DNA of 41,228 bases from an uncultured Victivallaceae bacterium (GCA_964440205.1 CAYTRK010000001.1:1-41228); one strand, 5' to 3'; positions 8,036-25,483 are shown, counted from the stretch's first letter. The notes: a model not told the origin generated them from the letters alone. Program-made: numbers and translations.

Positions 8036-8446
8036 CCTCGATTTGGTCGGCTTTTGACGGATCCAAGGTGGGAGGCACTGATGCAGTGGGCGGAAATCGA
8101 TGTCGCGCAAGCAAATCATGCGAAAGCATAGAGAAATGTGGCGCAAATGCAATCAGAATGACGAAAGCACTTTTTGATAATCGTCATTGCATTCAGTCAT
8201 GAATGAGGGCAGAATTCAACGAGTCTGATTTATTCATGAACCTTCGTTGGGAGAGTGCATGGTTTGCGGCAGATCAAGGGATTGTCGCAGGAAGCCGGGC
8301 GAAGGCGTGTTAGAAGACTCCGAGGCCGGCTTTCAAGACAAGTCATTGAGATGTCGTGACATGTGTACTCGCAGTAGATTGTTTATGAATAAGTAAGGCT
8401 GGTGGGTTTGGAGTATATGGCAATTCATAAAAGAAAGGTCGGAACT

Positions 8447-9196
8447 ATGAGTCGTATCATTACTATGTCTGTTATTATGGGTGCAGTGCTTGTTTTTTCT
8501 ATTACGGATCTGCATGCAGGGGATTCGAGTGTTGGCGCTGACGTCAATGCCGGATATGTATGGCGTGGTATTACCTTCAACGATGGAACAGTGTTTCAGC
8601 CATGGGTTGATGTTCCGATGGGGGACGGGTTCGGTGTTAATGTATGGGGTAACATGGACATTGATGACAACGACGGCGCCTACGAGGATGGTGAATTTTC
8701 AGAAGTGGATATTACATTGAACTATACAAGAGAGATTGGCGGTGTGGAGGTCTCTGGCGGGTATCTCGAGTATTTGTATCCACATCAGACAGATGTCACA
8801 AATGCCCTTGCAGGGACGCGAGAGGTTTATCTGTCGTTGTCCGCCGGGATCATCAGCGACCTTTCATGTACGTTTTCTTTCTATTACGACATTGATGAAA
8901 TTGAGGACTATTATGCATCCTTGGGCTTGGATTACGAGCTTGATCCTGAGGGACCGCTGAGCTTTGGCATAGGGGCCCGGATTGGTTACGCAGGCAAGGA
9001 CTGGGCAATTTTCAATTCAGGCGGTATTGACGGTGGATTTCACGAGTATGTTGTCCAGTCTTTCGCGTCTTACGAGGTTACAGATGCCATGAGTCTTGGT
9101 GCGACGGTGGCATATGCGGATTCGCTGGATGAAGATGTTCTGCCTGATCAGGATGTTGATGTGTATGGTGGTCTCAATTTGTCGTTGAGCCTCTGA
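8447..9196 (+). CDS. Gcw_chp/TorF-like outer-membrane beta-barrel protein (paralog 1)
   Basis: I trimmed the ORF to ATG 8447 (MSRIITMSVIMGAVLVFSITDLHA signal) with AAAGAAAGG upstream. Signature GADVNAGYVWRGITFNDGTVFQPWVDV...GVNVWGNMDI. The sequence alternates beta-like and ends GGLNLSLSL. Confidence 0.65.
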   Translation: MSRIITMSVIMGAVLVFSITDLHAGDSSVGADVNAGYVWRGITFNDGTVFQPWVDVPMGDGFGVNVWGNMDIDDNDGAYEDGEFSEVDITLNYTREIGGVEVSGGYLEYLYPHQTDVTNALAGTREVYLSLSAGIISDLSCTFSFYYDIDEIEDYYASLGLDYELDPEGPLSFGIGARIGYAGKDWAIFNSGGIDGGFHEYVVQSFASYEVTDAMSLGATVAYADSLDEDVLPDQDVDVYGGLNLSLSL

Positions 9197-9541: not shown

Positions 9542-10567
9542 CTATTTGAGCACTTTTACGCAACGAAATCCCAGTACCGGTCTCGTAAGGTTGGGGTAAT
9601 CAAAGCTTCTGAACGCAGATTCGATGGATCTTTCTTTAATCACCCAGTCTATTGCAAAAGGAATACCCATCTTGGCGTTGCCGGGATCATAATTCCAACT
9701 GCCGCCGCGTACGACCTTGAGCGGCCAGTATGTCTTGATCATCTTGATAAACACCAGAGGGCTTGAAGGGGGGCCAACCGGATCGGTTATTTCTGTATTG
9801 TCCGGGTAAGCGTCATACCAGTCGTTGCACCATTCGGCGACATTGCCGGCGAGATCGCAAATGCCGATAGCGTTGTCCCCTGCCGGCGAGAATGATCCCA
9901 CGGTTGTTGTTCCTCCGAATTTATCAAGACAGTTTGCCAGAGTGCGGGAAGGCGCAGATCTGCCCCACGGATAAGGCCGACCGTCATTGTACCGCGCAGA
10001 ATACTCCCATTCCGCTTCTGTAGGAAGTCGGTAGCCGGTCTTGTTGTATACGGTGCAGGTCCAGTTATCGATGTTATAAAGTTTATCAAGGCCTTCTTGC
10101 TCGCTAAGCATATTGCAATAGAAAGCTGCACCGTACCATGAGACCTCAATTACGGGCATGTCAGCTTTCCCTTTTAAGGGTGTGAATTTTCCGTCTGTAA
10201 ACTCTATTTCGCAGTCGTTGTCCTCGATATCGAGAAGTTTCTGAGGAGCTTTGCTGAGGCATTGTACGGATTTGCGTTCAACCTGGGCGGCAAGCGGCTT
10301 CTTGTTGATGTAGCCTTTTTTCATTGCGTAGTTCAGCATTTCTGCGAACTTTGCGTTGGTTACCTCGTATTTATCCATATACAAGCCATGTGTCAATGCG
10401 ACATTGCGTTCCGGTCTTGCATCCTCAATGTCGGCATTGCCCATGATAAACGAGCTGGGCTGAAGAAGTAGCATTTCGTGTTCATGCCAGTTCTGTGCGT
10501 CGGCGATATTTATGAAACAGTCTAACGTAACAATACAAACCGCTATAATCCAAGATGAGTATTTCAT
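9542..10567 (-). CDS. Secreted FGE-sulfatase-fold (SUMF1/EgtB/PvdO family) protein
   Basis: 341 aa with a signal-like N-terminus. Motifs VTNAKFAEMLNY, VSWYGAAFYCNMLS, YRLPTEAEWEYSARY, GNVAEWCNDWY, VVRGGSWNYD and LGFRCVKV. Confidence 0.9.
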   Translation of the reverse strand: MKYSSWIIAVCIVTLDCFINIADAQNWHEHEMLLLQPSSFIMGNADIEDARPERNVALTHGLYMDKYEVTNAKFAEMLNYAMKKGYINKKPLAAQVERKSVQCLSKAPQKLLDIEDNDCEIEFTDGKFTPLKGKADMPVIEVSWYGAAFYCNMLSEQEGLDKLYNIDNWTCTVYNKTGYRLPTEAEWEYSARYNDGRPYPWGRSAPSRTLANCLDKFGGTTTVGSFSPAGDNAIGICDLAGNVAEWCNDWYDAYPDNTEITDPVGPPSSPLVFIKMIKTYWPLKVVRGGSWNYDPGNAKMGIPFAIDWVIKERSIESAFRSFDYPNLTRPVLGFRCVKVLK

Positions 10568-10584: not shown

Positions 10585-12186
10585 TCAGAAGCCAACCCTG
10601 ATGCCGCTGTTCTTTCCGGGGTTGGACCTTGGGTTATTTGCCGCGAACCGGAGGCTGACCAGCAGGTATTTGCCGGCAGGCGAGGACCATACACCGCCGC
10701 GATTCCCTGCGCCAGCCCCTTCTCTTCCGGGCCAGTCGTCCACATTGGCATATCCTTTCGCGTCCAATTCGCCGTCGCCGTATGATCCTTGAAATGACCG
10801 CCCTTTCGGGTGTCCGATCGTGACGCATCGCTCCCAGAGGTTGCCGCTGAGTTCCATAATGCCGTAGTAAGAAGCGCCGTCGTTCAGGCGTTTTGGCACG
10901 CCCTGATGCTGAGTGTTTTCAAAGAGGCCGATACTGCACGGGCCTTCAAATCCGGGATTGTCTGGAATCTTTTTTCCGGCCGCTATTTCGAACGGGGCTA
11001 TGCCTCCATGAAAACAGCAATTGACAATACCTTGTTCGGGCACCTTTTTCTCGTCACCCGAACCATCTGCTCCATCGAAAGAATTGACTCTTGCCGGATC
11101 TTCAGTGCCCCACGCGTATTCTTCAGGTCGTGGTATTTCGGGGCCGCGGCATGCTTTCTCGTACTCTAGTTCAGTGATGGGGCGAAGGGCTGCCCAGTCG
11201 GCATAAGCTTCAAGATCAGCCCACGAAATATAGTTGCACGCCCTGGCAGGCGCGTATGTGTGGAACTTGATTGGCTCGGTTTTGCCGTTGCCTTTTTTGG
11301 GACAGCAGATGGACTGTCGCAAGACTTCTTTTTCGCTGTGGGTCATGACATGATATTCCTTCACTTCGTCGCCGCTGATATCTGAGGTTACCCGTGCCGC
11401 CTGCTGTTTGCGCGACAGGGTGTTTAGCATATCAACGTACTGCTGTGAGCTTAACTCATATTTCATGCACCAGAATGCTTTGTATCCTTTGGGGAATTCC
11501 GAGGGAATGGTAAAGGGTGTATTGTCTCTGCTCATCGGGTTATCTTGTTCACAGAAAAAAGAACCTGCTTTTTCCTCAACCGGGATGGCCTTTTCAGAAT
11601 CTATCAGGTATGGGCCTTTGTCGGGATAGGTGAAAAATGTGTTATCCGGCCCGTCGGCTCCGCGCGGATCTCCGACATAGTACTTGTCTTCGGGGACATA
11701 TACCATTTCGATGCCGAACACCCTGATCTCGGTCTTTCGCAGATCAGTGGCTGAGAGACCGTCTGCCTTGTAATCCCAGGCCAGTCGAACGTCGTCTGAA
11801 ATAACGTTTCCCGTGCCGGCAGTTCTGAAAAGGAATGCTCCCTTGCGGGTATTCGGTGTCCACATTCCAAGCGCGGTATTGTCGCCGCATGAGAAATATT
11901 CCGGTGTCTGGTCCAGGTAATTAAAATCATTCTTACTGCTGTTGAGAAGCGTGAGGTGTTTCCACGCGCCTTCAGGTTGCCTGTATTTTGCAAACAGCCA
12001 TACGGCGTCGCAATTGAGATTGTTCTTCCATGCCTTGTCCCATCTGACATTGCAGTTGACCTTCGCATAATCCTTCGCCGGATGAATAAGTATAAGCGCC
12101 GTATTATCTATTGACAGGCGGCTTGCCGTAACTTGCGCCTGTGAAAAGAGCAGTATAAAAGAGCAGACAGTTAATATTTTTTTCAT
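10585..12186 (-). CDS. Secreted protein with novel N-terminal half and C-terminal FGE-sulfatase-fold domain
   Basis: 533 aa with signal MKKILTVCSFILLFSQAQVTA. Motifs ISWADLEAYADWAALRPITELEYEKACRG, SGNLWERCVT, NRGGVWSS and the terminal SGIRVGF. Confidence 0.85.
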   Translation of the reverse strand: MKKILTVCSFILLFSQAQVTASRLSIDNTALILIHPAKDYAKVNCNVRWDKAWKNNLNCDAVWLFAKYRQPEGAWKHLTLLNSSKNDFNYLDQTPEYFSCGDNTALGMWTPNTRKGAFLFRTAGTGNVISDDVRLAWDYKADGLSATDLRKTEIRVFGIEMVYVPEDKYYVGDPRGADGPDNTFFTYPDKGPYLIDSEKAIPVEEKAGSFFCEQDNPMSRDNTPFTIPSEFPKGYKAFWCMKYELSSQQYVDMLNTLSRKQQAARVTSDISGDEVKEYHVMTHSEKEVLRQSICCPKKGNGKTEPIKFHTYAPARACNYISWADLEAYADWAALRPITELEYEKACRGPEIPRPEEYAWGTEDPARVNSFDGADGSGDEKKVPEQGIVNCCFHGGIAPFEIAAGKKIPDNPGFEGPCSIGLFENTQHQGVPKRLNDGASYYGIMELSGNLWERCVTIGHPKGRSFQGSYGDGELDAKGYANVDDWPGREGAGAGNRGGVWSSPAGKYLLVSLRFAANNPRSNPGKNSGIRVGF

Positions 12187-12286: not shown

Positions 12287-13702
12287 CTATTCATCTCTCG
12301 CCTTATCTCGATGCCCTGAAACAGATATAAGAACAGCCGGGATAATTGCAACGCCCAGTAATATGGCAAGGAGCATGAACTGTGCGCGTATGGATTCACT
12401 GCCCATGAGAGATGATGCCTTGCCCAGTACGATAGGGGAGGTGAACTGGCCGAAATATACCCCGGAACTGACTATTGCCATGCCGAAAGCCCTGGCGACC
12501 GGTGTGACGCTTTTTGACACCTTGAGAAGAAGCAGGGGCATCATGAATCCGGAGCTTAGGCCTATGCAGACGACACCTGCATAGACAAAAGAAAGTGACT
12601 GTGCTGTGCCTAGCAGCCAGAAGCCTCCGCCCATGAGGGCGATTGTTGCCGCCGGGAAAAGACGCCTCATTATGCGCATAAGCATAGCAAGGGCGATGCC
12701 GGAAACGACACCGGCGAGGGTCATTGCTGACAGCGCGAAGCCTGCAACTGCGGGTCTGCCGAGACGAGCATTGCTTATCATCAGGGCGTTTTCGGTCTTC
12801 TTTACGGCGTAACTTCGGTTGGCGTCTTTTAATAGCCAGCGCTTGCCGGGTTCTTCCTCGCTGATTGTAAGCTTGCCGTTAACCTGGATGCCGTTTTCAA
12901 TAAGAGCCTGTCTTGTCTGCTCGGGTACGATGCCGGTTCTAATGCTCTCTACAAGCTGTTCTTTGCTTTCCATTAGCGGGATATGGCTCTCAAAGATTGT
13001 TTCCTCTTCTTCTATGAATAGCGCCATATTAGTGGGTACCGCATAGAACGCTATCATCATGAGTGCGCCGAGCAGGGCGCACAACCATACGCTACCGGGC
13101 AGTCTGAATGCGTTTTGGCTCGACTTTTGTTTTTTCTCCCAGTCGGGCAGCCAGCGCAGGACGAGGGCCAGTGAGACAACAGCGAGGCTATAGACAGCAA
13201 ATGCGTAGCGCCAGCTAATGCATGCGAGCCAGCCGGATACAACGAGGAAAAGCACACCGCCGAGATGGCTTACTGAACCTGAGAGGCCCATCATCTTTGT
13301 CCGCTGTTCGCCTTCAAAAAGGTCAGCTATGAGTGATGTTGAAAGCGGCATTATAAGGCCCACGCCGACACCGAGCAGTCCTCTGAAAAACAGGAGCTGT
13401 TTGATTGTTGTTGTAAGTCCGCCGCCTATACCGCCGATGCAGAAAATAATAAGTCCTGTGATCAATACTTTCCGGGGTGTCCATTTTGACACGAGCCAGC
13501 CGGAGAAGAGGCTGAAAGGTATGATAAGCAGGGCGGGAAGTGTAAGTGTCAGTTTGATTACAGTCTTGCTCACTTCAGGGAAGGCCTGACTAATCTTTGC
13601 GAGCGCCGGTGAGACTGCGGCGGCAGCCATGATGGTAAGCAGTGACAGAGAGAGAACTGCTGTTTTTAATCCGATACCGGATTTGGTCTTTTTGTGGTTC
13701 AT
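12287..13702 (-). CDS. MFS transporter with ~85-aa soluble insertion
   Basis: 471 aa with ~12 hydrophobic helices by eye. A charged loop PDWEKKQKSSQ follows helix 6. A hydrophilic insertion (EEEETIFESH...ISNARLG) follows the next helix. Confidence 0.88.
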   Translation of the reverse strand: MNHKKTKSGIGLKTAVLSLSLLTIMAAAAVSPALAKISQAFPEVSKTVIKLTLTLPALLIIPFSLFSGWLVSKWTPRKVLITGLIIFCIGGIGGGLTTTIKQLLFFRGLLGVGVGLIMPLSTSLIADLFEGEQRTKMMGLSGSVSHLGGVLFLVVSGWLACISWRYAFAVYSLAVVSLALVLRWLPDWEKKQKSSQNAFRLPGSVWLCALLGALMMIAFYAVPTNMALFIEEEETIFESHIPLMESKEQLVESIRTGIVPEQTRQALIENGIQVNGKLTISEEEPGKRWLLKDANRSYAVKKTENALMISNARLGRPAVAGFALSAMTLAGVVSGIALAMLMRIMRRLFPAATIALMGGGFWLLGTAQSLSFVYAGVVCIGLSSGFMMPLLLLKVSKSVTPVARAFGMAIVSSGVYFGQFTSPIVLGKASSLMGSESIRAQFMLLAILLGVAIIPAVLISVSGHRDKARDE

Positions 13703-13706: not shown

Positions 13707-15695
13707 TTACCTTGTTGACCTTACTGGTCTGAAGGGGTATTTGCCGGTCTTTTTGCCGGCGTAGTATCCGTCGTAGCCGAATTGGAAGTTCACGCCCCAC
13801 GCAAACGATGAGGCATAAGTGGACGCAGCCCAGTAAAACCCAAGAGGCTTAGTCTTTACTTCAGGGAAGACATTTTTGTCGTGCCAGCTGTTCTCTGAGA
13901 AAGATACATCTATCAGAGTGGCAATTTCCTTGATGCTCGGCATGCGCCAGTCTGTCTGTCCGGCAAGGTCAAGTTCAGTGCAGTATTTCATGGCTTCGTT
14001 CCAGTTCAGATCCGGAGGTTCACCTTGCATCCACATAAGGCCGGTATTATTGTCGATCACGGTACCGTCACTGTTGTCTGTATAGGATCTTGCATCCGGT
14101 GTTCCGAATGCAAGGTTGTAACCGCCGCGTACGGCCCTGACTGCATAGCGATTTTCTTTCGGGTAACAGATGCCGCATCCGATTGCAAAGTATATGCCCC
14201 ACACCAGGTCAGGATTGGCTCCATAAGGATCGCAGGACCAGTAGAACTCGCAGGCGCACATGTCGTCAAAAGTATCAGCGAGGGAAGGTGAGTATTTTCC
14301 GTAACTTACGATAGATCTCAGCTCTTCCCTGTTAGGCATTCTCCAGTCACTGAAGCCACCGTACATATTCTCGTTAAGTATCTCTATATAATCAAGCGCC
14401 TGTCCATAAGTATAGCGCTTATGGATTGAGTTTAAGGCAACTGGATCATTCGATTTAGTTTCCCAGATGAGCCCTGTATTGTTATCGAAGACCATGCTGA
14501 AGCCCTCTTCTTCGGTCACATTGTCGGCTATAGGGTGTCCGCCATCTCTCATTTTATTGCATGAGAGGGGGTGTATCTGGAAATTGCCGTCTTGTCCGTA
14601 AAAGTCATCGCCTTTGGCAGGTTCATTTATGACGTTACCTTCATCGTCATAGCAGTCGCGCTGTCCGGAATCGGAAAGCACGAAAGCGTTTGATGATTTC
14701 AGGGGCGCATCCAGATTGCGTACTGCGCGGAAAAGCAGTGTCGCTTTTTTGCTGGCGTAATAACCGTCGTAACCAAAGCAAAAATTGGTTACCCAGACGT
14801 AGTATTTTTCATAGGGTGTAGACGAGAAGTAATGCAGTAGTGGTGGTTGAAGTCCGTCGGCGGGGAAGGCGTCTTTGAAATACCACCAGCCGTCATCGTA
14901 GTTCAGGTTAAGTATTGTGTTTAATTCTTTAATGTTTGGCAGGCGCCAGTCCTTATGACCTGCGAGGTCCATCTTTTCGCAGGATTCCAGAGCATCAAAC
15001 CAACTCATCCGGTCGTTTTCATCCTTTTGCCACATCAATCTGGTGACGTTGTCGGTGATGGTTCCATCGCCATTGTCCTGAAAGCGCGATTTGTCCGGCT
15101 TCCCGAACTGGGCATTGTTCCCCCCGCGCACGGCGCGGACATATTGATTTGCGGTCTGTCCGCTGGCGGTTCCACTGCCGAGCCCGAAAAAGAGTACCCA
15201 GCCGAAATACGGCTGCATCTGATATACGTCTTTTGTCCAGTAAAAGTCTATTTGAGTGTGAGGGAAATACCAGGTATCGACGGCTGGATTAATTATACTG
15301 TAGTCAAAGATTGAGCGCAGTTCATCTTTATTCGGCATTCTCCAGTCAGAGTGGCCGCCGTATTCAGAATCATTGAGCCTTTTGATGTAAACGGTTTGTG
15401 CGTCTTTAAAGCTATACTGATCCTTGCAATAGTTAATGTCATCTGGATCGGGCGACTTGATTTCCCAGGTCAGGCCGGTGTTCTCGTCGCAAACCATACG
15501 GTAGCCGTCTTCCCATGATGCGGCATCAGCGATATCTTCGGCGTTTGCATCGAGTTTTTTGAATTGCATAGGATGCAACTCAAAGCATCCGTCCTGCCCG
15601 TAATATTGTTCTCCCTTGCCTGGGGTGGGGATGTCTTTGCCGAGGTTGTCGTAACAGTTGTTTACGCCTGTATCGGGAAGGTTCAGCCGACTCAT
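13707..15695 (-). CDS. Four-module DUF1566 (Lcl C-terminal-like) protein, no signal peptide
   Basis: 662 aa. Four DUF1566 signatures: HSDWRMPNKDELRSI, HKDWRLPNIKELNTI, FSDWRMPNREELRSI, QTDWRMPSIKEIATL. Two PDTG/DSGQ-x-CYD...YGQDG leader motifs indicate an internal ~330-aa duplication. The stop is 4 nt from the MFS start. Confidence 0.85.
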   Translation of the reverse strand: MSRLNLPDTGVNNCYDNLGKDIPTPGKGEQYYGQDGCFELHPMQFKKLDANAEDIADAASWEDGYRMVCDENTGLTWEIKSPDPDDINYCKDQYSFKDAQTVYIKRLNDSEYGGHSDWRMPNKDELRSIFDYSIINPAVDTWYFPHTQIDFYWTKDVYQMQPYFGWVLFFGLGSGTASGQTANQYVRAVRGGNNAQFGKPDKSRFQDNGDGTITDNVTRLMWQKDENDRMSWFDALESCEKMDLAGHKDWRLPNIKELNTILNLNYDDGWWYFKDAFPADGLQPPLLHYFSSTPYEKYYVWVTNFCFGYDGYYASKKATLLFRAVRNLDAPLKSSNAFVLSDSGQRDCYDDEGNVINEPAKGDDFYGQDGNFQIHPLSCNKMRDGGHPIADNVTEEEGFSMVFDNNTGLIWETKSNDPVALNSIHKRYTYGQALDYIEILNENMYGGFSDWRMPNREELRSIVSYGKYSPSLADTFDDMCACEFYWSCDPYGANPDLVWGIYFAIGCGICYPKENRYAVRAVRGGYNLAFGTPDARSYTDNSDGTVIDNNTGLMWMQGEPPDLNWNEAMKYCTELDLAGQTDWRMPSIKEIATLIDVSFSENSWHDKNVFPEVKTKPLGFYWAASTYASSFAWGVNFQFGYDGYYAGKKTGKYPFRPVRSTR

Positions 15696-15730
15696 ATCGC
15701 ATCTCCATGTTGAGGTGTTATTTACAAGGC

Positions 15731-17386
15731 TCAGACCTTACCCAGGCTGAATGGCGGATACACTTCCGATTCAATATGAACATCGATCAGCGTTGGTTTG
15801 CCATCCTCGATAGCCTTCTTCAGGACCGGCTCGAAATCTTCAATCTTCTCCACGCGGTAGCCTTTGGCGCCGCACGCCTTAGCGTATTGGATATAGTCAG
15901 GGTTGTTGAATGTCATGTAAGCATGCCTGTTGTACATATTGATCAGGAACTTCTTGATCACATTGAATTCACCGTTGTTGAAAATGACCCATATGACAGG
16001 TATATTATACTGAACAGCAGTCATCAGTTCGAAACCAGCCATCAGGTAGCATCCGTCTCCGGAGCCGCTTATTACCACCTTGTCAGGGTTTGCGCATTTG
16101 ACACCGATACAGCCGTTTGTATGGCTGGCCATCGGGCCGAAAGAGCCCGGGTTCTGGTAACGCTGGTTTTGTCCATATTTCATATGCGCGCAGAGCCACA
16201 GCATGTGTGAGCCGGCATCGCCCATGACGATTGCATCGGGCGGCAGACATTTTGATATTTCTCTGCAGAGCTCTCCGGGATGTATCTTTGAGCCGGAGTG
16301 TTCTATGGGCAGGTCGCAATTTCGTTCGCTTTCGACATGTATTTGTTCAGGCTGATCAGGAATGGCTTTTTCCATTTCCGCATGCAGGGCTTCAATCGCT
16401 GGCAGAATATCGCTGACCATGCCGTAATCGGCCTTGTAGACCTTGTCTATTTCATTGGGGTCTATATTGATATGAAGCAGCGTTTTATTCTCATAGAGAT
16501 CGGGTTTGAATGAGAAGGTTGCATTTTGTGCAAACGAGTTGCCCAGAGCTAGAATTACATCGGCGCTGTCGAAGAAGGCTGTTGCTCCCGGATCGCCGGA
16601 TGTTCCGTACATGCCTAAGCTCAGGTGGGTCTCTTCGGAGAGAGCTCCTTTGGCGTCCATCGTAGTGAAATATGGCAATTGAAAACGGTCTACCAGCTTG
16701 CGCAGGGCTTTTTCAGCGTGACTGCGAATACAGCCGTAGCCGATGATGACGCCGACTTTTTTGTTGCTCTTAATAGCGTCTGAAAGTACGTCGGCAAACT
16801 CCTTGACCTTGGCTGTGTCTGGAAGAACAGGCTTGATGTCCAGTTTAATTTCTCTGAAGTTCGGCACTTCCATGACTGTTACGTCTTTAGGCACATGGAT
16901 GTGAACGGGACCCGGGCGGCCTTCAAACGCGGTATTGAGAGCATCTTCCAGTATGTCACAGGTATCCTTCGGGTCTTCTATGATATAAGATTTTTTTGTA
17001 GTAGCCGAGAACATGGCGTGGGAATCAGGAGTTCTGTTGAGACCCGTTGACTCGTTCAGTGCGCCTTTGCCGCGCTGGCTGGCAGAGGTGTAGCCGGTGA
17101 TGCCGAGTATTGGCAGGGAGTCGTAATAGGCGACAGCCATACCTGAGAAAAGGTTAAAAGCGCCCGGTCCGCCGGTGGCGAAACAGACGCCTAGTTTATC
17201 GGAGAACATCGAGTATCCGCAGGCCATGAAAGATGCAGCCTGCTCGTTCTTGACTATCACGGTTTTTATGTGGTCTGATTTCTCAAGCGCCAGGAGCATA
17301 GATGCATTAACCTGGCCTGAACCCCCGAAAACGTGATCTACGCTGATGTGTTCCAGTGTGCTGACAATTGCTTCATTAACGTCCAT
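15731..17386 (-). CDS. Thiamine-diphosphate-dependent enzyme (acetolactate synthase/decarboxylase superfamily; substrate unknown)
   Basis: 551 aa. ThDP motif GSGDGCYLMAGFELMTAVQYNIPVIWVIFNNGEFN. N-terminal Pyr domain HVFGGSGQVN...GPGAFNL. Confidence 0.92.
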   Translation of the reverse strand: MDVNEAIVSTLEHISVDHVFGGSGQVNASMLLALEKSDHIKTVIVKNEQAASFMACGYSMFSDKLGVCFATGGPGAFNLFSGMAVAYYDSLPILGITGYTSASQRGKGALNESTGLNRTPDSHAMFSATTKKSYIIEDPKDTCDILEDALNTAFEGRPGPVHIHVPKDVTVMEVPNFREIKLDIKPVLPDTAKVKEFADVLSDAIKSNKKVGVIIGYGCIRSHAEKALRKLVDRFQLPYFTTMDAKGALSEETHLSLGMYGTSGDPGATAFFDSADVILALGNSFAQNATFSFKPDLYENKTLLHINIDPNEIDKVYKADYGMVSDILPAIEALHAEMEKAIPDQPEQIHVESERNCDLPIEHSGSKIHPGELCREISKCLPPDAIVMGDAGSHMLWLCAHMKYGQNQRYQNPGSFGPMASHTNGCIGVKCANPDKVVISGSGDGCYLMAGFELMTAVQYNIPVIWVIFNNGEFNVIKKFLINMYNRHAYMTFNNPDYIQYAKACGAKGYRVEKIEDFEPVLKKAIEDGKPTLIDVHIESEVYPPFSLGKV

Positions 17387-17722: not shown

Positions 17723-18502
17723 CTAGCGTGAAGCAAGAACTTCGGCGACCTTCTGGCCGAAAGCAATCGATGATTCCACGGAATTGCCTGTTATGAATGG
17801 CCAGTCAAAAGCCACGCGCGGGTTGTCCCGCGTTGCTTTCGGATCGCCTATGCATTCGCCCTCGGGGCCGACTGCATCCCTGACGATATCCTCCAGCGGA
17901 TAAAGGAAGCCGGAATACACGGCGTCCGTGCCTTTGTTGTCATCAGTAGCGCCCCAGAGATCAAGGGTGACTTCATCTTCAAAGTCCCATGATCGCGGAT
18001 GCGCACAGACGGTTTTGCCGTATATCACACTCTTGTAATCATTGTTTGGATCACGGGTGAATATGAGTGCGGCTGTGGCGTAGCACAGTGTCGCGACCAG
18101 CTTGTCCTGAGCTATTGCTTCGAGGATCAGCCGCTTGAAGTGCTTATTTGGTGCGATGTCCATCATCGCGCCAAGACCGCCAGTACCTACAACGGCGTCA
18201 TAATCGTCCATTTTGGCATCTGCCAGCTTGATAGGGTTCGCCCATTCGTTGCTTTTGACCAGTTCCTTGGTTCTCTCGCACACGAATTCGGGGTTAACCT
18301 TTGGGTTGAGCCCTGGGAGGTTGTCCAGCATAGGATCAACAAAATCAGGATCAACGCTTATTTTAAGCGGCAGTGGTTTTTTGCCTTGTGGTGTTGCCAG
18401 CGTCAGGTCGAAACCTGCTTTTTTGAGTTCGTCCCATGGTCCCTGGAGCTCTTCAGCCCACACACCAAAGTTTGTTGCCAGAACTAGTACTTTCTTACTC
18501 AC
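17723..18502 (-). CDS. DJ-1/PfpI-superfamily (class I glutamine amidotransferase-like) protein, copy A
   Basis: I moved the start to GTG 18502 (AAGGAG 6 nt upstream; MSKKVLVLATN parallels the copy B start), whereas the track uses TTG 18517. Motifs GTGGLGAMMD and the nucleophile-elbow-like ATLCYATAAL. Confidence 0.85.
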   Translation of the reverse strand: MSKKVLVLATNFGVWAEELQGPWDELKKAGFDLTLATPQGKKPLPLKISVDPDFVDPMLDNLPGLNPKVNPEFVCERTKELVKSNEWANPIKLADAKMDDYDAVVGTGGLGAMMDIAPNKHFKRLILEAIAQDKLVATLCYATAALIFTRDPNNDYKSVIYGKTVCAHPRSWDFEDEVTLDLWGATDDNKGTDAVYSGFLYPLEDIVRDAVGPEGECIGDPKATRDNPRVAFDWPFITGNSVESSIAFGQKVAEVLASR

Positions 18503-18537
18503 TGAAATCTCCTTCAATACTATATTTTGTTCATTAT

Positions 18538-19302
18538 TTAGCGTGAAGCGAGAACTTCGCAGATCTTGTCGCCGTAGGCGATTGAAGATTCAACGGAGGT
18601 TCCTGTAATAAACGGCCAGTCAAACGCCACTTCAGGATCTTCCCGGTTTGCGGTTTCGCGTGCTATGCACTCGCCGTCAGGGCCAACAGCGTCACGTACG
18701 AGGTGTTCGATGGGCCAGAGGAATCCGGGGGTGTGGACATCTGTGCCGTTGTTGTCATCGGTTGCACCATAGAGGTCGTAGGTGAAGTCCCAATCCGGGC
18801 CGTAGAAGTCCCAGGATGCCGGGTGCGCTGCTACCTTTTTGCCGTAGATCAGGGCTTTGCCGTCATCTCTACGGGCAAAGACCAGAGACGTGACTGCATA
18901 ACAAAGAGCGCAGGTCAGCTTGTCCTGTGCGATCGAGTCTTTGAGCAGCTTGTGTACATTGTAATTATTACACATATCTATCATTGCGCCAAGACCGCCT
19001 GTAAGGACTATGGCGTCATAATTCTTCATGTCGGCATCTTTAAACGTAATGGGGTTAGCCCATTCGTCACCGTCCGTGAGCTCTTTAATCCTGTCGCAGA
19101 CCTCGGGTGGATTTACCGCGAAGTTGATAATAGGATCGACGAACTCAGGATCGACACTGACTGCCAGCGGAAGAGGTTTCTTTCCGAGTGGTGTTGCCAG
19201 AGTCACGTTGTGACCTGCCTTGTTGAGCGCGTCCCACGGCGCCTGGAGCTCTTCGCCCCAAGTGCCGTAGTTCGTCGCAAGTACTAGTACTTTCTTACCC
19301 AT
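18538..19302 (-). CDS. DJ-1/PfpI-superfamily protein, copy B (tandem paralog)
   Basis: 254 aa with AAGGAG RBS. It is collinear with copy A over the full length (MGKKVLVLATNYG...LTGGLGAMID...CALCYAVTSL...EVLASR). Confidence 0.87.
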   Translation of the reverse strand: MGKKVLVLATNYGTWGEELQAPWDALNKAGHNVTLATPLGKKPLPLAVSVDPEFVDPIINFAVNPPEVCDRIKELTDGDEWANPITFKDADMKNYDAIVLTGGLGAMIDMCNNYNVHKLLKDSIAQDKLTCALCYAVTSLVFARRDDGKALIYGKKVAAHPASWDFYGPDWDFTYDLYGATDDNNGTDVHTPGFLWPIEHLVRDAVGPDGECIARETANREDPEVAFDWPFITGTSVESSIAYGDKICEVLASR

Positions 19303-19347
19303 TTTTATCTCCTTATTATGGTTGTTTGGGTTTGTGAAACCTTTTTG

Positions 19348-19680
19348 TTATTTGTTTTTGCCCGGGATATCTTCTTTTACCGGATTGAAAACATCGATTG
19401 CTTCTGTTTCGCCGAGAGCAGTGAATGTGTGTTTGACATTGGGAGGGATGAAATAAGAATCACCTTCCAGTAGACGCGTCTTGTCGTTCCCTATAGTCAT
19501 GTCGAAGCCGCCCTTGATAACATATCCGAACTGTTCCTGAGGGTGGTTGTGCAGAGGTATCACGCTTCCGTCATCCATGTTCCAGTGAAGAACGTTCATG
19601 TTAGTACCAGGGCCAAGCTCCTGCATGAGGATGCCGCCGCCGATATCTTTCTTGGGAATCTTTTTGTGATAACAATACAT
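19348..19680 (-). CDS. Cupin-domain protein
   Basis: 110 aa with GAGGAGG RBS. Cupin motif 1 PLHNHPQEQFGYVIKG and motif 2 GDSYFIPPNVKHTFTA. Confidence 0.85.
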   Translation of the reverse strand: MYCYHKKIPKKDIGGGILMQELGPGTNMNVLHWNMDDGSVIPLHNHPQEQFGYVIKGGFDMTIGNDKTRLLEGDSYFIPPNVKHTFTALGETEAIDVFNPVKEDIPGKNK

Positions 19681-19807
19681 GTATTGTGCCTCCTCGTTGT
19701 GCGAGAGTTAGAGTTCGGGGTTAGTCCCGAAATAAAACTGCCTGTAAAATACGACTTCCGCCCAAAGGGGGCAAGCAGAAAGAAGACCAGAAACACCTTT
19801 GTTCCTG

Positions 19808-19911
19808 TTAGCCCGCATATCTCACGCAATTTCGTAGCGAGAGCGTGGAGAGCCCCGCAGCAGCGCTATCCGCGCTCGCAGCGGGAATTTTGTTAAGATA
19901 TGCGGGTTAGG
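19808..19911. repeat. Full-length ~104-bp palindromic MITE/REP-like element (arm-swapped variant)
   Basis: It has the same TTAG-CCCGCATATCT...AGATATGCGGG-TTAG termini and CCCGCAGCA centre as the 9391 copy. The two internal arms match that copy only in exchanged, reverse-complemented positions. It sits in a divergent intergenic region. Confidence 0.85.
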
Positions 19912-20055
19912 GCATTGTTAGGCGCGAAAGCCTTAAAAAATGGTTTTTGGCGACAGATTTGTTGACTTTGGCGCTGCAAACGGATAGTCCTTATAGCTTG
20001 ATTTTATATGGCTACAAATAATGGAGTGAGTGCAGGCGAAAGGACAGGTTACATA

Positions 20056-20880
20056 ATGATGCAAAAAGTTTTGTTGCTCACGTGTTTCTGCTTATTAGTC
20101 CAGTGTTCGTGTGCCAGGTTCCCTGAAGGCAGTCCTGGCCGCGGGGCCGAAGCCCCGCGGCTTGACAAGAGCGTTAAGTTTATCGCCGGCCCCGACAAGA
20201 AGTGGTTCACGGATGATGATCCTGTCTATCACTATCACGCGTATCGTTACGGCGCGGATGGACGCAAGCTCTTGACTATATGCCATGGCGCAGGTGACTA
20301 CGGTGAAGTCTGTACAGATGATGATGTACAGTTTTACCTGGCTCATTCGTACGACATGGGCGGCATGGTTTCTTCTGAAACTTTCCACAATTCTGCGGGT
20401 CCTGATGGAGTGTGGTTTAATGATAATGATCCTGTTGGCTGGGAACAGGTCTTTGAATATGAAGGTGACAGAAAAAAGCAATATCTTCGCAAAAAAAACG
20501 GCGAGACAATTCGTCTGATGACTTATGAATACGACGGCGAGAACATTGTAAAGGACGCCGAGTATAACGCGCCTGGTCCTGATGGAGTGTGGTGCACGGA
20601 CGATGATGTGCTGGAAAGATATCATAGGTTCACTTTTGATGAACACGGCAGGAAAATTAAGTCGAGAGAATATCATGCTCATCACCGTGGCAGTGGTGAT
20701 GATGGCGAATGGTTTACCGAAGATGATATTGTGTCTTCTGCCATGACGCATCTGTATCATCACGGTCGTGCAGCGAGGGACATTAAACTGATAGGGGCAG
20801 GGGCTGATTGTAAATGGTTTACGGATGACGATGTCCTTCAATATTATGTTGTCCACGATTATTCCTGTGCTGTTGAATGA
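20056..20880 (+). CDS. Secreted (possibly lipo-) protein built from six ~35-aa GxDGxWFTDDD repeats
   Basis: I trimmed the ORF to ATG 20056 (MMQKVLLLTCFCLLVQCSC signal). The repeats are GPDKKWFTDDDPV, GDYGEVCTDDDVQ, GPDGVWFNDNDPV, GPDGVWCTDDDVL, GDDGEWFTEDDIV and GADCKWFTDDDVL, each followed by an aromatic-rich Y..Y..G(R/K)K segment. Confidence 0.75.
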   Translation: MMQKVLLLTCFCLLVQCSCARFPEGSPGRGAEAPRLDKSVKFIAGPDKKWFTDDDPVYHYHAYRYGADGRKLLTICHGAGDYGEVCTDDDVQFYLAHSYDMGGMVSSETFHNSAGPDGVWFNDNDPVGWEQVFEYEGDRKKQYLRKKNGETIRLMTYEYDGENIVKDAEYNAPGPDGVWCTDDDVLERYHRFTFDEHGRKIKSREYHAHHRGSGDDGEWFTEDDIVSSAMTHLYHHGRAARDIKLIGAGADCKWFTDDDVLQYYVVHDYSCAVE

Positions 20881-22592
20881 TTAACAAATATATAGCTGCA
20901 GTCCTTGTTTGCGCGCTTGCGCCTGTCTGTGTGTTTGCATTAATTGATGAGGACAGTGGAAGCGGCAATGATGTGAGAAGCAGGTATATGCTGCCCAAAC
21001 CTGCTGCTCAAAAGAAGTTTGACAAATTCATGAAGCAGGTTTCGCGTGCCATGGTACGTTCTGAAGTCCCTGCAGGCAGTTACAGACTTAGCGGCTTTGA
21101 GGTTGACGGCCCGGAGATAATCTCGCGCAAGATTGTAGCGAGGATAATAAAGGGCTATCTCGACAAACCATTATCTTCTGACGATATCCGGGCGTGTGTT
21201 GATGCTGTTACAAAGGAGCACCGCAAACGCGGTTATGTAACGTCTTATGCCGATTTTGGCGGGCTTACCCGGGCCGGCGAGGGTGATACTTATATTCTCA
21301 ATGTGGAAATAGTTGCGGGCAAGATTGGCGATGTAAAAGTCGCAGGCAACAGATTTTTCAGTGAAGACGTTATAAGGGACAGGCTCGATGTGGAGCAGGG
21401 TGAATATTTCAATCTCAAGGATCTTCAGTTTGGTGTATACAAGACGAGCCGTGTTATGGACAGGCGGGGGACATTGGATATTGATTATGATATGGACAGT
21501 GGTCTTTCTGATGTCAGTGTTATGGTTAAGGACACGGTGCCTGTTCATGTTACGTTTGAGATGGATAGTTACGGTTCGTGGTTCATTAATCAGAACCGTT
21601 ACAGGATCATGACCCTGCATAACAATCTCACCGGGCATGATGACCAGATACAGTTCAAGATGCAGTGGGCAGATAAAAGTGCGCATGAGCTTTATGATGT
21701 AGCTTACAGACTGCCGCTGGGGAACAAGTTCTGGTGGGAAGGTTATTTTATGCCTTATAAGGCGGAGGACTACTTTCATGATATGGCAGGCATTCACAAG
21801 CGTGCCTGGAAGACTTACACTTACCTGCATTACAATATGATAGAAGAGCCGGGCAGGAGTTTTATCTGGGATCTGGGTTTCGTGTATAAGCACATAGACT
21901 GGCAGTTGCCCCAGGGTAGTAATGTCAAGAGGGATCATTTCAGCGGTGTGCTTTTCGGATTCGACCTGGATTTCTCGGACAAGCGTGGCAGGACCATAAT
22001 TACGGATGATCTTGAAATCGGCATACCGGGTCTTTTCGGCGCAACGGAAGAAGATGTGGACGAAACTTCGGTAAAAGGCGCTGACGGGCAGTATGTCAGG
22101 AATCACCTTATTGTTGCGCGCAGACAGAAGCTGTTCGAGGGAACGGATTTTTTGCTGAAAAGTCATTGGCAGGTGGCAGATGCGGTGCTGACCGGTGTTA
22201 ACGCTTTCAGTGTGGGCGGCTATTTTGGGATAATAGACATGCGCGGATATCCGCGCGCTCAGGCGTACGGCGAGAACGGTTTATCTGTGTCTTCCGGATT
22301 TTCGTTTGCACCCTATTTCCTGCCCAGGGACATGAAGGTGCCGGGATCTAAGGGCACTTTTTTCAAGACAACCCAGTTGTTTGCCCTTATTGATTGGGCG
22401 ACGGTCAGCAAAAAACAGCCGCCTGAGGGTGAATCTCACAGCACAACGCTGGCGTCTGGTGTGGCCGGCATGCAGATGACGTTGCCGGAAAAGTTTTTTT
22501 GCAGGCTCGATGTGGGTATCCCGTTGACTGATGATGAACCTAAGGACGACAGGGACTATCAGGTATGGTTTCGTATAAGCAAAATGTATTGA
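20877..22592 (+). CDS. ShlB/FhaC/HecB-type (TpsB-like, Omp85 superfamily) outer-membrane transporter
   Basis: 571 aa. Its ATG overlaps the upstream TGA (ATGA at 20877-20880). Signal MINKYIAAVLVCALAPVCVFA. POTRA-like YRLSGFEVDG...KEHRKRGYVTSYADF...LNVEIVAGKIGDVKVAGNRFF. A long beta-barrel region ends in the aromatic WFRISKMY. Confidence 0.85.
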   Translation: MINKYIAAVLVCALAPVCVFALIDEDSGSGNDVRSRYMLPKPAAQKKFDKFMKQVSRAMVRSEVPAGSYRLSGFEVDGPEIISRKIVARIIKGYLDKPLSSDDIRACVDAVTKEHRKRGYVTSYADFGGLTRAGEGDTYILNVEIVAGKIGDVKVAGNRFFSEDVIRDRLDVEQGEYFNLKDLQFGVYKTSRVMDRRGTLDIDYDMDSGLSDVSVMVKDTVPVHVTFEMDSYGSWFINQNRYRIMTLHNNLTGHDDQIQFKMQWADKSAHELYDVAYRLPLGNKFWWEGYFMPYKAEDYFHDMAGIHKRAWKTYTYLHYNMIEEPGRSFIWDLGFVYKHIDWQLPQGSNVKRDHFSGVLFGFDLDFSDKRGRTIITDDLEIGIPGLFGATEEDVDETSVKGADGQYVRNHLIVARRQKLFEGTDFLLKSHWQVADAVLTGVNAFSVGGYFGIIDMRGYPRAQAYGENGLSVSSGFSFAPYFLPRDMKVPGSKGTFFKTTQLFALIDWATVSKKQPPEGESHSTTLASGVAGMQMTLPEKFFCRLDVGIPLTDDEPKDDRDYQVWFRISKMY

Positions 22593-22607
22593 GAAGAGGT
22601 CTTTAAT

Positions 22608-23453
22608 ATGACAGTGAAGAGGTTGTTGGCGTTTAGCACAGCAGTTATCTTGATGTGTGGTTGCGGTGTACTGGAGGGAGCAGAGTCTGATCATAACTTG
22701 TTTGATACCCGCCTGGGCCTTGATGTCGGGTCGGCATACATCTTCAGGGGCGCCACAATGAACGATGGTTGGGTGCTGCAGCCGTCGGCGGAGGTCAGTG
22801 CGTTCGGGCTTTTCGCCGGCGCATGGGCTAATTATGACCTTAACGATTACTCCGGTATTCTTGACAGATTCCGCTTTACGGAGGAGCGTATTTATGGTGG
22901 ATACCGTGCCGGGGCATGGGGGTTTCAAATTAAACTTGGTTATACATACTATCTGGAACGCCTTTCTCATACGGCTGTCGACGAGGCGCCCATAGACCTG
23001 AGCCGGCTGACCTTGCCCGAGATTCAGGAGATCAGGAAATCAATAAAACGGGAAGCGATGTCCGATCAATATCCGGTCTTCGAGAGTGATGATGCTTCGG
23101 AAGGAGTGTTTGAGCTCTCATATCCGGCGAGATGGACACCGTCGCTGAGTGTTTATCACGGATTGGACGGTAGTCTTGAAGATATGACTTATGTTATTGC
23201 AGGGCTGGACTTCAGATATTACGACCGGGCTGGATGGAGGATGTCGATGGGCGGGTCGTTTGCATATTATGACGGGCCGGATCAAGACGGGATGAGTTAC
23301 TGTGTTATAACACACGCGGTATCCTACGGATATTTGCGCGCGGAGATAAGGTTTATTGGCAATTTTGATGAAGATCTGCTGCCTGACGCGGAAGACGGTG
23401 GGCCATATGATATCCGGGAGTACGCGCTTATAGGTTTAAGCAGGCATTTCTGA
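22608..23453 (+). CDS. Gcw_chp/TorF-like outer-membrane beta-barrel protein (paralog 2)
   Basis: 281 aa, 15 nt after the TpsB-like stop. It has a signal sequence. LGLDVGSAYIFRGATMNDGWVLQPSAEV...AGAWANYDLND matches the signature of the 8447 gene. Confidence 0.65.
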   Translation: MTVKRLLAFSTAVILMCGCGVLEGAESDHNLFDTRLGLDVGSAYIFRGATMNDGWVLQPSAEVSAFGLFAGAWANYDLNDYSGILDRFRFTEERIYGGYRAGAWGFQIKLGYTYYLERLSHTAVDEAPIDLSRLTLPEIQEIRKSIKREAMSDQYPVFESDDASEGVFELSYPARWTPSLSVYHGLDGSLEDMTYVIAGLDFRYYDRAGWRMSMGGSFAYYDGPDQDGMSYCVITHAVSYGYLRAEIRFIGNFDEDLLPDAEDGGPYDIREYALIGLSRHF

Positions 23454-23492
23454 TACGTTTCGAAATTTCTGCCAGTGTTGTGGAGAATAAAG

Positions 23493-23885
23493 ATGAGCGA
23501 TGAGAAGAAACATATTCTTCTGGTTGGCACTGAGAAATGCTTTATATCAACGCAGGGCACGAAGCGCCTCTGATATATTCGGCTGAAGGCGCCTTGAAAG
23601 GATCGCTCCCGCCATGCGGTCCTGTTGTAGGGATTATTCCTGACGCTACTTATTCATCCCAGAAGGTTGTCATCGAGAAGAATCACTCGCTGGTTCTGTA
23701 TGCCGATGGCCTTACTGATTCACGTAACGGGCAGGGAAAGGAATATACTTTCGACCGGCTGAAGAAGCTTTGCGGCAATCCGGTTTGATCGGGTGCGGAG
23801 ATGCTGGACATGATCACCTCGGATGTGCAGGGGCACATAGGTGGCGCAGATCAGTTTGATGATCTTACGGCTGTCGTGGCGCCGG
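23493..23885 (+). pseudogene. Remnant of a response-regulator/PP2C (SpoIIE-type) phosphatase gene
   Basis: Three frame-discontinuous pieces. (1) MSDEKKHILLVG (receiver-like start) runs into a stop at ~23570. (2) An 83-aa ORF, LYINAGHEAPLIY...LVLYADGLTDSRN, corresponds to the C-terminal half of a PP2C domain. (3) Another frame after 23788 reads GAEMLDMITSDVQGHIGGADQFDDLTAVVA, the PP2C C-terminal motif. The N-terminal metal-binding half is missing. Confidence 0.6.
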
Positions 23886-23899
23886 ACGGTCTGACCGTT

Positions 23900-25483
23900 T
23901 CAGGGTTTGATCATCTTGAGTGTAAGGATGGTAATGTCGTCAGACTGGGGAGACAGGCCCGCGTGGTGTGTTACTGAATTCATAATTTCCTCGGTTATTT
24001 TGCGTGGGTCTGTATGTCCCGTTTTTTCCAGCGTGGATTGGAGTCTTTTCTCGTAATACATCTCTCTGTTGACATTCATGGCTTCTGTTACGCCGTCTGT
24101 GCAAACGACTATGGTCTCGCCCTGTTGCAATTCAGAGGTAAGGGTCGTATATTTGGCTCCCGGCATTACCCCGAGTACTATGCCTTTCGGAAGTTCGAGT
24201 CGACGCGATGAGTTTTTTGTCTCCATAATCAGGGGCGGGTTGTGACCGGCGTTTGAATACCGGAGTTCGCCTGTCTTGATATTAAGGATTGCGCAGAACA
24301 TTGTAACGAAGAGCAGGCGCTCGTTTTCCTGCGAAAGATCTTCGTTTACGCGATCGAGTATTTCAGCCGGGTTATTGCCTATTTCGTGCGCGGCGCGTTT
24401 CATGAGAGTTATGGTTACAGCCATCATCAGAGCGGCCGGGACACCTTTGTCCGAAACGTCGCCTACGTAGAAGAAGAGGTGATCATCGTCTATCATGTAA
24501 AAATCATAGAGATCCCCTCCGACTTCCTTTGCCGGAACGAGTGTGGCGTACAGATCAAATTCCTTTTTGTCCGGGAAGACTGGAAACAGTTTCTTAAGGA
24601 AACTCATCTGTATGTCATGTGCGATTTTGAGTTCACTCTCAATGCGCTCTTTCGCGGCTGTTGTTTCCTTGAGATTCTTGATGTATTCGAGCAGCCGCGC
24701 AGCCATTGTAGAGAATGCGGAAGCAAGCTGACCGACCTCGTCCTTGTAGACAAGTCCCATCTGGTGCAGTTCGGCGCGCTGTTCCTCCGTGAATTTGAAT
24801 CCGCCTTCGGACAGAACATGGATATACGAAGTCAGCCTGCCGACAGGCTTCAGAATATGGGAAATTACGATATAACTGCATATCCATACCAGCACGGAGA
24901 TGAGCAATCCCAGCCCGACATTGATCATGATGCTGCGATTAAGTTCGTGTGCAATGAAATCGAGGGACACATCGGCGCCGATGATATAGCGGTTTCCGTT
25001 TGCGGTTGTGCGCGGAATAAAAATAGAGCGGAAGAAACCCCATTCGTCTGAATATTCAGCGTATTGGACCGTGCGTGTTTTCCACGCTTTTGTCATTGCC
25101 GCGGGTGGTTGTTCATACTTGGTGAAATAGGGGGTTTCGTTTTCGTTGCGGATCTCGTCTTCTGTTGCGCTTGTCGTTGCGACATAGAACTGTCCCTGGT
25201 ATTTGACATAGGTGTAAAGGTATTTTATGTCAATTTTGTTGGCATACTGGCTCAATTCGCGAAGTATATGTTTGTGTTCTTCGGAAGAGATCGCGTCGGG
25301 AGTCCGGGCTCTATCGTGGAAGCCTTCCGGGATCAGTTTAGGAAGCACAGTTGCTACAGACTCTAATTTGCTGTCGACGCCTTCCAGGAATGCGTTACGC
25401 TGGAGTATGCAGGCGGTAATTGTAAAGGCGATGGTAGCGACAATGTTGATCGCAAAAGCAATCAACAGCATTTTACTCCTCAT
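23900..25483 (-). CDS. Membrane sensor PP2C phosphatase (TM - periplasmic Cache-like domain - TM - HAMP - SpoIIE), RsbU-like
   Basis: All PP2C/SpoIIE motifs are intact: KEVGGDLYDFYMI, YVGDVSDKGVPAALMMAV, YSNAGHNPPLI, VVCTDGVTEA, SDDITILTL. The HAMP-like region is ILKPVGRLTSYIHVLSEG. Start options are ATG 25483, ATG 25471 (GAGGAG upstream) or TTG 25501 (4-nt overlap with the upstream stop). Confidence 0.9.
   Translation of the reverse strand: MRSKMLLIAFAINIVATIAFTITACILQRNAFLEGVDSKLESVATVLPKLIPEGFHDRARTPDAISSEEHKHILRELSQYANKIDIKYLYTYVKYQGQFYVATTSATEDEIRNENETPYFTKYEQPPAAMTKAWKTRTVQYAEYSDEWGFFRSIFIPRTTANGNRYIIGADVSLDFIAHELNRSIMINVGLGLLISVLVWICSYIVISHILKPVGRLTSYIHVLSEGGFKFTEEQRAELHQMGLVYKDEVGQLASAFSTMAARLLEYIKNLKETTAAKERIESELKIAHDIQMSFLKKLFPVFPDKKEFDLYATLVPAKEVGGDLYDFYMIDDDHLFFYVGDVSDKGVPAALMMAVTITLMKRAAHEIGNNPAEILDRVNEDLSQENERLLFVTMFCAILNIKTGELRYSNAGHNPPLIMETKNSSRRLELPKGIVLGVMPGAKYTTLTSELQQGETIVVCTDGVTEAMNVNREMYYEKRLQSTLEKTGHTDPRKITEEIMNSVTHHAGLSPQSDDITILTLKMIKP

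Follow-up and report, generated by a model that had tools for sequence, protein, structure and literature searches.

A predicted TpsB-type transporter subfamily without a TPS-domain partner, with a member encoded between a YD-repeat protein and a putative small outer-membrane barrel

TpsB transporters of two-partner secretion (TPS, type Vb) are defined by a dedicated cargo, TpsA, which carries a TPS domain. Here we describe a relative of these transporters encoded in a 41,228-nucleotide stretch of DNA from an uncultured Victivallaceae bacterium (GCA_964440205.1 CAYTRK010000001.1:1-41228). The whole of this 41-kb stretch is called the window. Three of its genes, named A, B and C, occupy positions 20056-23453. 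The middle gene, B, encodes the transporter-like protein, A encodes a small repeat protein and C a putative small barrel. Sequence comparison places B in a distinct subfamily within the TpsB branch of Omp85 proteins; the subfamily is monophyletic and appears to have no TPS-domain partner. The defining features of TpsB were drawn from the literature (PMC5422565). Features that B shares with FhaC, ShlB and CdiB are its signal peptide, a stretch of about 50 residues ahead of two POTRA domains of the POTRA_2 type, a predicted barrel of the ShlB type, the (V/M)RGY motif of loop L6 and an aromatic residue at the C-terminus. In Flavobacterium johnsoniae, BamA-BamG has been described as an Omp85 protein in stable association with another barrel and with additional subunits (PMC12611786).

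All three genes are on the plus strand: A at 20056..20880, B at 20877..22592 and C at 22608..23453. B's start codon (ATG) and A's stop codon (TGA) share bases within an ATGA tetranucleotide (GTTGA-ATGA-TTAAC; GTTGAATGATTAAC), and B and C are separated by a 15-nt spacer, GAAGAGGTCTTTAAT, that includes a Shine-Dalgarno-like run, GAAGAGG. This confirms the co-orientation, overlap and gap given in a preliminary description of this DNA. A was taken to start at MMQKV (20056), although its maximal open reading frame (ORF) begins at 20008. To place the genes in context, genomes were scanned with the B alignment, a metagenome scan was added and individual proteins were looked up; this gave 36 related loci (given L-numbers below), and their ORFs were classified with family hidden Markov models (HMMs). 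The metagenome scan, conducted with the close-clade alignment, yielded only 3 loci. In L003, a 69%-identical homologue of A begins at the equivalent of 20059, and the 4-nt ATGA overlap between A and B is retained at 74% DNA identity. A word-seeded search of public data returned 45 homologues of A, 35 of B and 3 of C, so these are real genes and not chance ORFs. From this layout, A, B and C would form one co-transcribed operon.

B is a protein of 571 residues. Its signal peptide is likely cleaved at VFA/LID, and the segment between the signal peptide and POTRA1 (residues 22-72) has a length that suits a plug helix H1 and a linker. Pfam detected POTRA_2 at residues 71-127 (E 1.4e-9), POTRA at 149-201 (E 3.6e-6) and ShlB (PF03865) in two partial stretches, at 30.9 bits against a cut-off of 22.7. 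The protein ends in the aromatic sequence ...SKMY. The signal peptide, two POTRA segments and aromatic barrel end that had been noticed earlier were confirmed. A profile of 28 homologues matched CdiB (5e-24), FhaC (5e-13) and BamA (~1e-8) among PDB structures. Residues 73-256 align to the POTRA domains of CdiB; over the barrel, the alignment with CdiB does not reach significance. The L6 motif reads IDMRGYPR at 453-460 (MRGY at 455-458), with D454, R456, G457, Y458, P459 and R460 invariant in the 28 homologues. The POTRA and ShlB domains, the preference of the profile for CdiB and FhaC over BamA, and the L6 motif place B in the TpsB branch of Omp85 and not in another branch, as had been proposed.

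Within that branch, B is divergent. At the beta13 F/GxDxG site, it has LIDWA (504-508), in which Gly is replaced by Ala and the Phe is not kept in the window. Omnitrophota members have FxDWA, and the Asp is invariant throughout the window clade, whose B proteins are 49-81% identical. When B was aligned with a canonical TpsB paralogue over its full length, identity was 26%, with a 3-residue insertion before RGY in B. The B family has conserved motifs of its own (MPYKxEDY, ARRQKL and GVNxFSxGG) and is monophyletic in a neighbour-joining tree. The nearest B found in the genome scan, at 56% identity, belongs to Lentisphaerae bacterium RIFOXYA12_FULL_48_11. B has the POTRA and L6 features of TpsB and lacks the TPS-domain partner, and we infer that it works in a TpsB-like manner.

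To look for a TpsA, every window ORF of at least 150 residues was scanned, and none of these ORFs in the 41 kb matched the TPS domain (PF05860). The largest ORF in the window encodes a 1073-residue MFS/HEAT/cNMP protein. The earlier statement that no large TpsA lies within 20 kb was, therefore, correct. The same holds elsewhere: a TPS-domain gene partnering B was found in 0 of about 35 B-family loci. L005 and L007 served as positive controls. In both, a canonical TpsB (ShlB 85 bits) is followed by a TPS-domain protein of more than 1000 residues (E 9e-35), and the pair directly adjoins the gene cluster that contains B in Omnitrophota, with a TpsB that is separate from B. These Omnitrophota genomes, thus, have ordinary TPS systems, and B is a separate paralogue.

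The canonical TpsB lies right after the Omnitrophota cluster at L005 16874-21735, L007 17283-21703 and L018 17366-19069, and a TPS-domain/Laminin_G TpsA follows it in L005 and L007. Two ORFs share the sequence of this TpsB in L007 and in L018; the split could stem from a frameshift or an assembly error, or the gene could be a pseudogene.

A sister subclade of B (L017, L019 and L023; for example L019 491-8303) has a different kind of neighbour. There, B follows a 1785-residue protein that has a signal peptide and no TPS domain. This protein contains CarboxypepD_reg, DUF11 and SdrD_B repeats (immunoglobulin-like), and a protein of about 210 residues from an unknown family is encoded alongside. 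The large non-TPS partner suggests that the B family handles non-TPS proteins.

A, the 274-residue product of the first gene, has an N-terminal hydrophobic signal for Sec export and an Asp content of 12.6%. It is built from six units, each consisting of a GxDGxW[FC]T[DE]DD motif (GxDGxWFTDDD in its typical form) followed by a YD-type hairpin; examples of the YD-type stretches are YRYGADGRK, YEYDGENIV and FTFDEHGRK. Pfam and NCBIfam gave no usable direct match for A, and PF05593 was not detected in it, but four A homologues carry PF05593. An AlphaFold2 model made with 28 homologues has a predicted local distance difference test score (pLDDT) of 90.8, a predicted template modelling score (pTM) of 0.80 and 14 long beta strands. 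The best Foldseek matches of the model are the YD shells of Rhs proteins, Tc toxins (TcB/TcC) and teneurins, with E values of ~1e-6 and template modelling (TM) scores below 0.3, and the sequence profile of A matches the Rhs structure 7q97 at 9e-7. A search for TPS/Haemagg_act (PF05860) found no match in A even at E<=1. A is, therefore, predicted to be a small, free-standing sheet of YD-repeat hairpins and not a TPS beta-helix. With 274 residues, no TPS match and a hairpin-repeat sheet that has Rhs-like matches, it bears none of the features of TpsA, in agreement with the preliminary description. The same description gave A a Sec/lipoprotein-type signal. The hydrophobic signal is present, but the lipobox is non-canonical (LLVQC/SC), so that A is at most a candidate lipoprotein. 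Omnitrophota homologues of A have signal-peptidase-I-type signals.

YD-type beta-hairpin repeats are shared by A and the Rhs/YD proteins, which include the Rhs effectors of type VI secretion systems, the BC shells of Tc toxins, and teneurins. In its mature form, however, A comprises only some 250 residues in 14 strands, which is not enough for a closed cocoon. The protein also has no toxin domain, aspartyl-protease motif, PAAR or VgrG link, and each of its units bears the extra GxDGxWFTDDD motif. TM scores below 0.3 indicate that A shares only local architecture with the Rhs shells. At this size, with no extra domain and such scores, A does not correspond to a closed, toxin-enclosing Rhs shell.

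C has 281 residues, a signal peptide and a terminal Phe (...SRHF). No Pfam or NCBIfam model matched it directly at E<=1. A profile of C and three relatives detected 1722 proteins at E<=1e-3 among 1.84 billion representatives. When 50 of these relatives were sampled, 27/50 matched PF09694 (best 3.8e-15) and 29/50 matched TIGR02001 (best 1.6e-18). This transitive profile evidence assigns C to the TorF/Gcw_chp barrels at the superfamily level only. The earlier name "Gcw_chp barrel" holds at that level and not as a direct family match. C resembles TorF/Gcw_chp proteins (PF09694, TIGR02001) in size (about 250-280 residues) and beta-strand pattern, and it has their N-terminal SxYxxRG...NDG..QP motif. 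In contrast to them, it falls below the reporting thresholds of both models and contains an extra stretch of about 40 residues that includes a predicted helix (residues ~120-160). An AlphaFold2 model from only 4 sequences has about 13 strands at a pLDDT of 50. At that confidence, its matches are only suggestive, and they include only porins, FapF and OmpG (E 2e-4 to 1e-2, TM 0.3-0.48). Profile, model and synteny together are consistent with a small outer-membrane beta-barrel. A literature search that did not cover all journals found no paper on the function of the TorF/Gcw_chp family. Membership of C in the BBP2_2 barrel family of Omnitrophota was considered and rejected, as hhalign gave 47% probability over 66 columns.

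The window contains a paralogue of C (8402..9196, +; HMM 2.9e-17), a second TorF-type barrel that aligns to C with 27% identity. It lies at the far edge of the cluster described below, convergent with a short FGE-like gene.

Conservation was compared between the window clade and Omnitrophota. Eight window-clade loci have sequence downstream of B (the window, L003, L027, L028, L029, L031, L035 and L036), and C directly follows B in all eight. A free A gene that is translationally coupled to B was found within this clade only in the window and in L003. A conserved A-B-C triad, for which the preliminary description proposed a look at other genomes, is not what these loci contain: B-C is constant (8/8), and A stands free upstream of B in two loci. 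In L031 (11986-13842, -) and L035 (2-1171, +), A is instead fused to the C-terminus of a short FGE-sulfatase-like protein, FGES, and the gene order in L035 is FGES::A - B - C. In Omnitrophota, the cluster is co-directional and runs TPP enzyme, Lcl_C, DJ-1/PfpI, MFS, a long FGE-sulfatase-like protein (FGEL), FGES, A, (Ion_trans_2), B, FecR, BBP2_2 barrel and CHASE2-cyclase; Pfam identifies DUF3307 on the opposite strand beyond the CHASE2-cyclase. In 13/13 Omnitrophota loci with upstream sequence, no more than about 1 kb separates B from an A gene upstream of it, and A always comes after FGES. FecR and a BBP2_2 barrel, rather than C, follow B in 14 of the 15 loci. A or FGES::A is found directly upstream of B in the phylogenetically distant L008, L013, L016 and L035.

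Two further observations concern single loci. L011 (7076-8975) has a tandem duplication of A (304 and 295 residues) upstream of Ion_trans_2 and B. The L022 contig is binned as 'Candidatus Aenigmatarchaeota archaeon', and its B has the same length, the same N-terminus and the same HMM score as that of Omnitrophota L021; the contig is probably bacterial and mis-binned.

A-B-C appears, from the order of the genes, to be one end of a larger conserved envelope/metabolic cluster that spans window positions 8402-23453. Eight genes on the minus strand diverge from A. Reading away from it, they encode a Cupin_2 protein (19348..19680), which is the first gene of the divergent operon and is also present in the L031 cluster; two DJ-1/PfpI (ThiJ-like) proteins (18538..19302 and 17723..18517), the first of which is cytoplasmic and is a cluster member in Omnitrophota loci; a thiamine pyrophosphate (TPP)-dependent enzyme (15731..17386); a four-domain Lcl_C (DUF1566) protein (13707..15695); an MFS transporter (12287..13702); FGEL, with 533 residues (10585..12186); and FGES, with 341 residues (9542..10567), whose orthologues adjoin or fuse with A elsewhere. 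These assignments are based on Pfam, with synteny for the TPP enzyme, Lcl_C, MFS and FGEL proteins and inspection of the N-terminus for the Lcl_C and FGEL proteins. Within the cluster, signal peptides were found only in FGES, FGEL, A, B and C, and not in the Lcl_C, TPP, DJ-1 and cupin proteins. The Lcl_C protein starts directly with its LPDTG...CYD motif. A secreted protein had been expected, and since the signal peptide is missing, it appears to be cytoplasmic.

Inverting the block at 9542-19680 gives the Omnitrophota order ...MFS-FGEL-FGES-A-B, and after this one inversion, the window cluster is collinear with the 12-13-gene Omnitrophota cluster. The three genes would, therefore, make up the end of a roughly 15-kb cluster. 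The intergenic region at 19681..20055, between the minus-strand cupin...FGE operon and A-B-C, is the presumed promoter region for both. A consensus scan of 19200-24000 for promoters and terminators gave promoter results indistinguishable from shuffled sequence, and the window contains no tRNA or Rfam elements. Downstream of C, at 23534..23881 (+), is the remnant of a GAF-SpoIIE gene (its last ~116 residues), recognized by a Pfam SpoIIE fragment and by tblastn and blastn against L003. An intact GAF-SpoIIE phosphatase of 609-616 residues directly follows C in L003 and in L036, where it was found with Pfam, and the window is without about 1.5 kb of this region relative to L003. The window also has GlcNAc-2-epimerase-like (N-acetylglucosamine) and isoamylase genes at 34681-39021 (+), and such genes flank B in the Lentisphaerae-type L004, L026 and L030. 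They also flank the B of Lentisphaerae bacterium RIFOXYA12_FULL_48_11, and the window probably stems from an uncultured relative within the Lentisphaerota/PVC group. An analogy between the two FGE-like proteins and GldJ/GldK of the type IX secretion system was dropped, as no other components of that system are present.

What might these genes do? We tentatively read A-B-C as a TPS-independent Omp85 module for the export or anchoring of A, and possibly of an FGE-like protein, with C as an outer-membrane partner; we give this account somewhat less than an even chance. We infer which protein is the cargo, which way it is transported and whether B and C touch, and A may be the cargo of B in only one of several possible readings. 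In the proposed mechanism, A would leave by Sec, either by itself, accompanied by the FGE-like protein or fused to it, and would then be passed to B, which would translocate A or anchor it at the outer membrane with no need for a TPS domain. The Asp-rich YD hairpins, folding one after another, could power this last step. C would act beside B as an accessory barrel, or it could be a porin for a small molecule of the MFS, TPP, DJ-1 and cupin genes. Several observations favor this export reading: B descends from TpsB proteins, A and B are translationally coupled, A or FGES::A recurs directly upstream of B in distant lineages, and the sister subclade has a non-TPS partner. A bolder version, which we regard as quite improbable, makes the system a TPS-independent offshoot of type V secretion: B, a TpsB-derived barrel that has shed its POTRA domains in some lineages, would work with the TorF-type barrel to export a YD module or display it on the cell surface, and this module would replace the TPS beta-helix as the domain for recognition and as a folding ratchet. 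The FGE-sulfatase-like domain of the L031 and L035 fusions could then be the passenger.

A number of points weigh against export of A by B. The ShlB match of B is weak (30.9 bits over partial stretches), and its F/GxDxG motif is degenerate. Three Lentisphaerae-type loci (L029, L036 and L004) have no A, and in L028 an ankyrin-repeat protein takes its place. In both fusion loci, B is only 406-422 residues long; it keeps the signal peptide and an acidic N-terminal motif, but the H1/POTRA region is missing, which argues against POTRA-mediated recognition of cargo. The POTRA-less variants and the B-C loci without A both weaken the export reading. A is also tied more tightly to FGES (its neighbor in 15 related loci and its fusion partner in 2) than to B, and A-family genes occur with no B nearby in L001, L002 and L032. 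L002 has the order LCL-DJ1-MFS-FGEL-FGES-A and no B within 6 kb, and L001 has A alone. At L032 5750-13381, four A-like paralogues (385-416 residues) are interspersed with a BBP2-like small barrel, which indicates that YD-repeat proteins of this family can associate with small barrels in the absence of an Omp85 protein. Based on the adjacency, the fusions and the A loci without B, the tightest partner of A is FGES and that of B is the small barrel. The primary evolutionary partner of A, thus, appears to be the short FGE-sulfatase-like protein, which is predicted to be periplasmic.

These observations fit other explanations to different degrees. In a serious alternative, B and C would be a two-barrel outer-membrane module for membrane-protein insertion, or an envelope scaffold or conduit for the cluster, with A and the FGE-like proteins acting together in the periplasm and not transported by B. 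What is best conserved is B paired with a small barrel (C in 8/8 clade loci and FecR plus BBP2_2 in 14/15 Omnitrophota loci), POTRA-less B variants retain C, the fusions of A with FGES suggest that these two form a unit in the periplasm, and BamA-BamG of Flavobacterium johnsoniae provides a precedent (PMC12611786). However, B belongs to the TpsB branch and not to the BamA branch, and TpsB proteins are known as translocases (PMC4104836, PMC5422565). Also, C and the Omnitrophota BBP2_2 barrel have no detectable homology (hhalign 47%), so the partner barrel is not one conserved subunit. We think this explanation somewhat unlikely. Alternatively, the adjacency of A and B could be a by-product of rearrangement: A would act with the FGE-like proteins only, C would be the outer-membrane porin of a small-molecule pathway that includes the MFS, TPP, DJ-1 and cupin genes, and B would have an unrelated role under regulation shared with the cluster. 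The inversion that restores ...MFS-FGEL-FGES-A-B agrees with this, as do the adjacency and fusions of A and FGES, the L002 cluster without B, the annotation of the TorF family as putative porins, and the second C paralogue at the other edge of the cluster. Against it, the ATGA overlap is kept in L003 at 74% DNA identity, A or FGES::A recurs directly upstream of B in the distant L008, L013, L016 and L035, and B stays in the cluster across phyla; we consider this possibility unlikely. Another possible explanation is canonical two-partner secretion with a large TpsA elsewhere in the genome. Only 41 kb of the genome is visible, and some TpsB proteins serve more than one TpsA (PMC5422565). This is very improbable, because about 35 B-family loci include no TPS-domain partner gene, the TpsA genes of L005 and L007 have their own adjacent canonical TpsB from which the B-family barrels have strongly diverged (26% identity), and some B variants lack the POTRA domains that are needed for TPS recognition. 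Compared with these explanations, TPS-independent export or anchoring of A by B remains the reading that we tentatively prefer.

The preliminary description could not match the arrangement to a described system. A literature search, which did not cover all journals, likewise found no paper describing the cluster or the combination of TpsB, TorF and YD-repeat proteins. What sets the finding apart is a whole B subfamily without TpsA that is common to Omnitrophota and Lentisphaerae-like bacteria, is always in one multi-gene cluster and is sometimes POTRA-less. Such a subfamily would widen the known roles of Omp85 barrels derived from type Vb. The cluster gives context to three families of unknown function: the TorF/Gcw_chp barrels, the GxDGxWFTDDD/YD-repeat proteins and the secreted FGE-like pair. 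Its three or four small co-expressible genes also provide a testable handle on the envelope biology of uncultured Planctomycetes-Verrucomicrobia-Chlamydiae (PVC) and Omnitrophota lineages.

Several described systems resemble parts of this locus. The machinery for beta-barrel assembly (BAM) in Bacteroidota, with BamA, the barrel BamG and the surface lipoproteins BamH/BamM, combines an Omp85 protein with a second, smaller barrel and non-membrane subunits (PMC12611786), as A-B-C would. BamA, however, is a five-POTRA insertase and BamG is FadL-like and unrelated to C; the likeness is architectural only. The order of B, FecR, a barrel and CHASE2-cyclase in Omnitrophota recalls the pairs of FecR and CHASE2 sensors known from Burkholderia and Pseudomonas (PMC5192318). 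The window clade has neither; it has C instead, plus the GAF-SpoIIE phosphatase in L003 and L036. An architecture without POTRA domains ('noNterm') has been described for Omp85-type barrels (PMC4104836, PMC11358297), and the B variants of L031, L035 and P0054 resemble it: in them, a signal peptide and a short acidic stretch lead straight into the barrel. Those proteins have barrels of the Omp85 (PF01103) type, in contrast to the ShlB/TpsB-type barrels of the B variants, and the window B keeps both POTRA domains. The closest relatives of B are FhaC, ShlB and CdiB. The B family differs from them in having no TPS-domain TpsA at any locus, in its divergent barrel with family-specific motifs, in its neighbors, which are a small YD-repeat protein and a small barrel, and in including some members that are fully POTRA-less.

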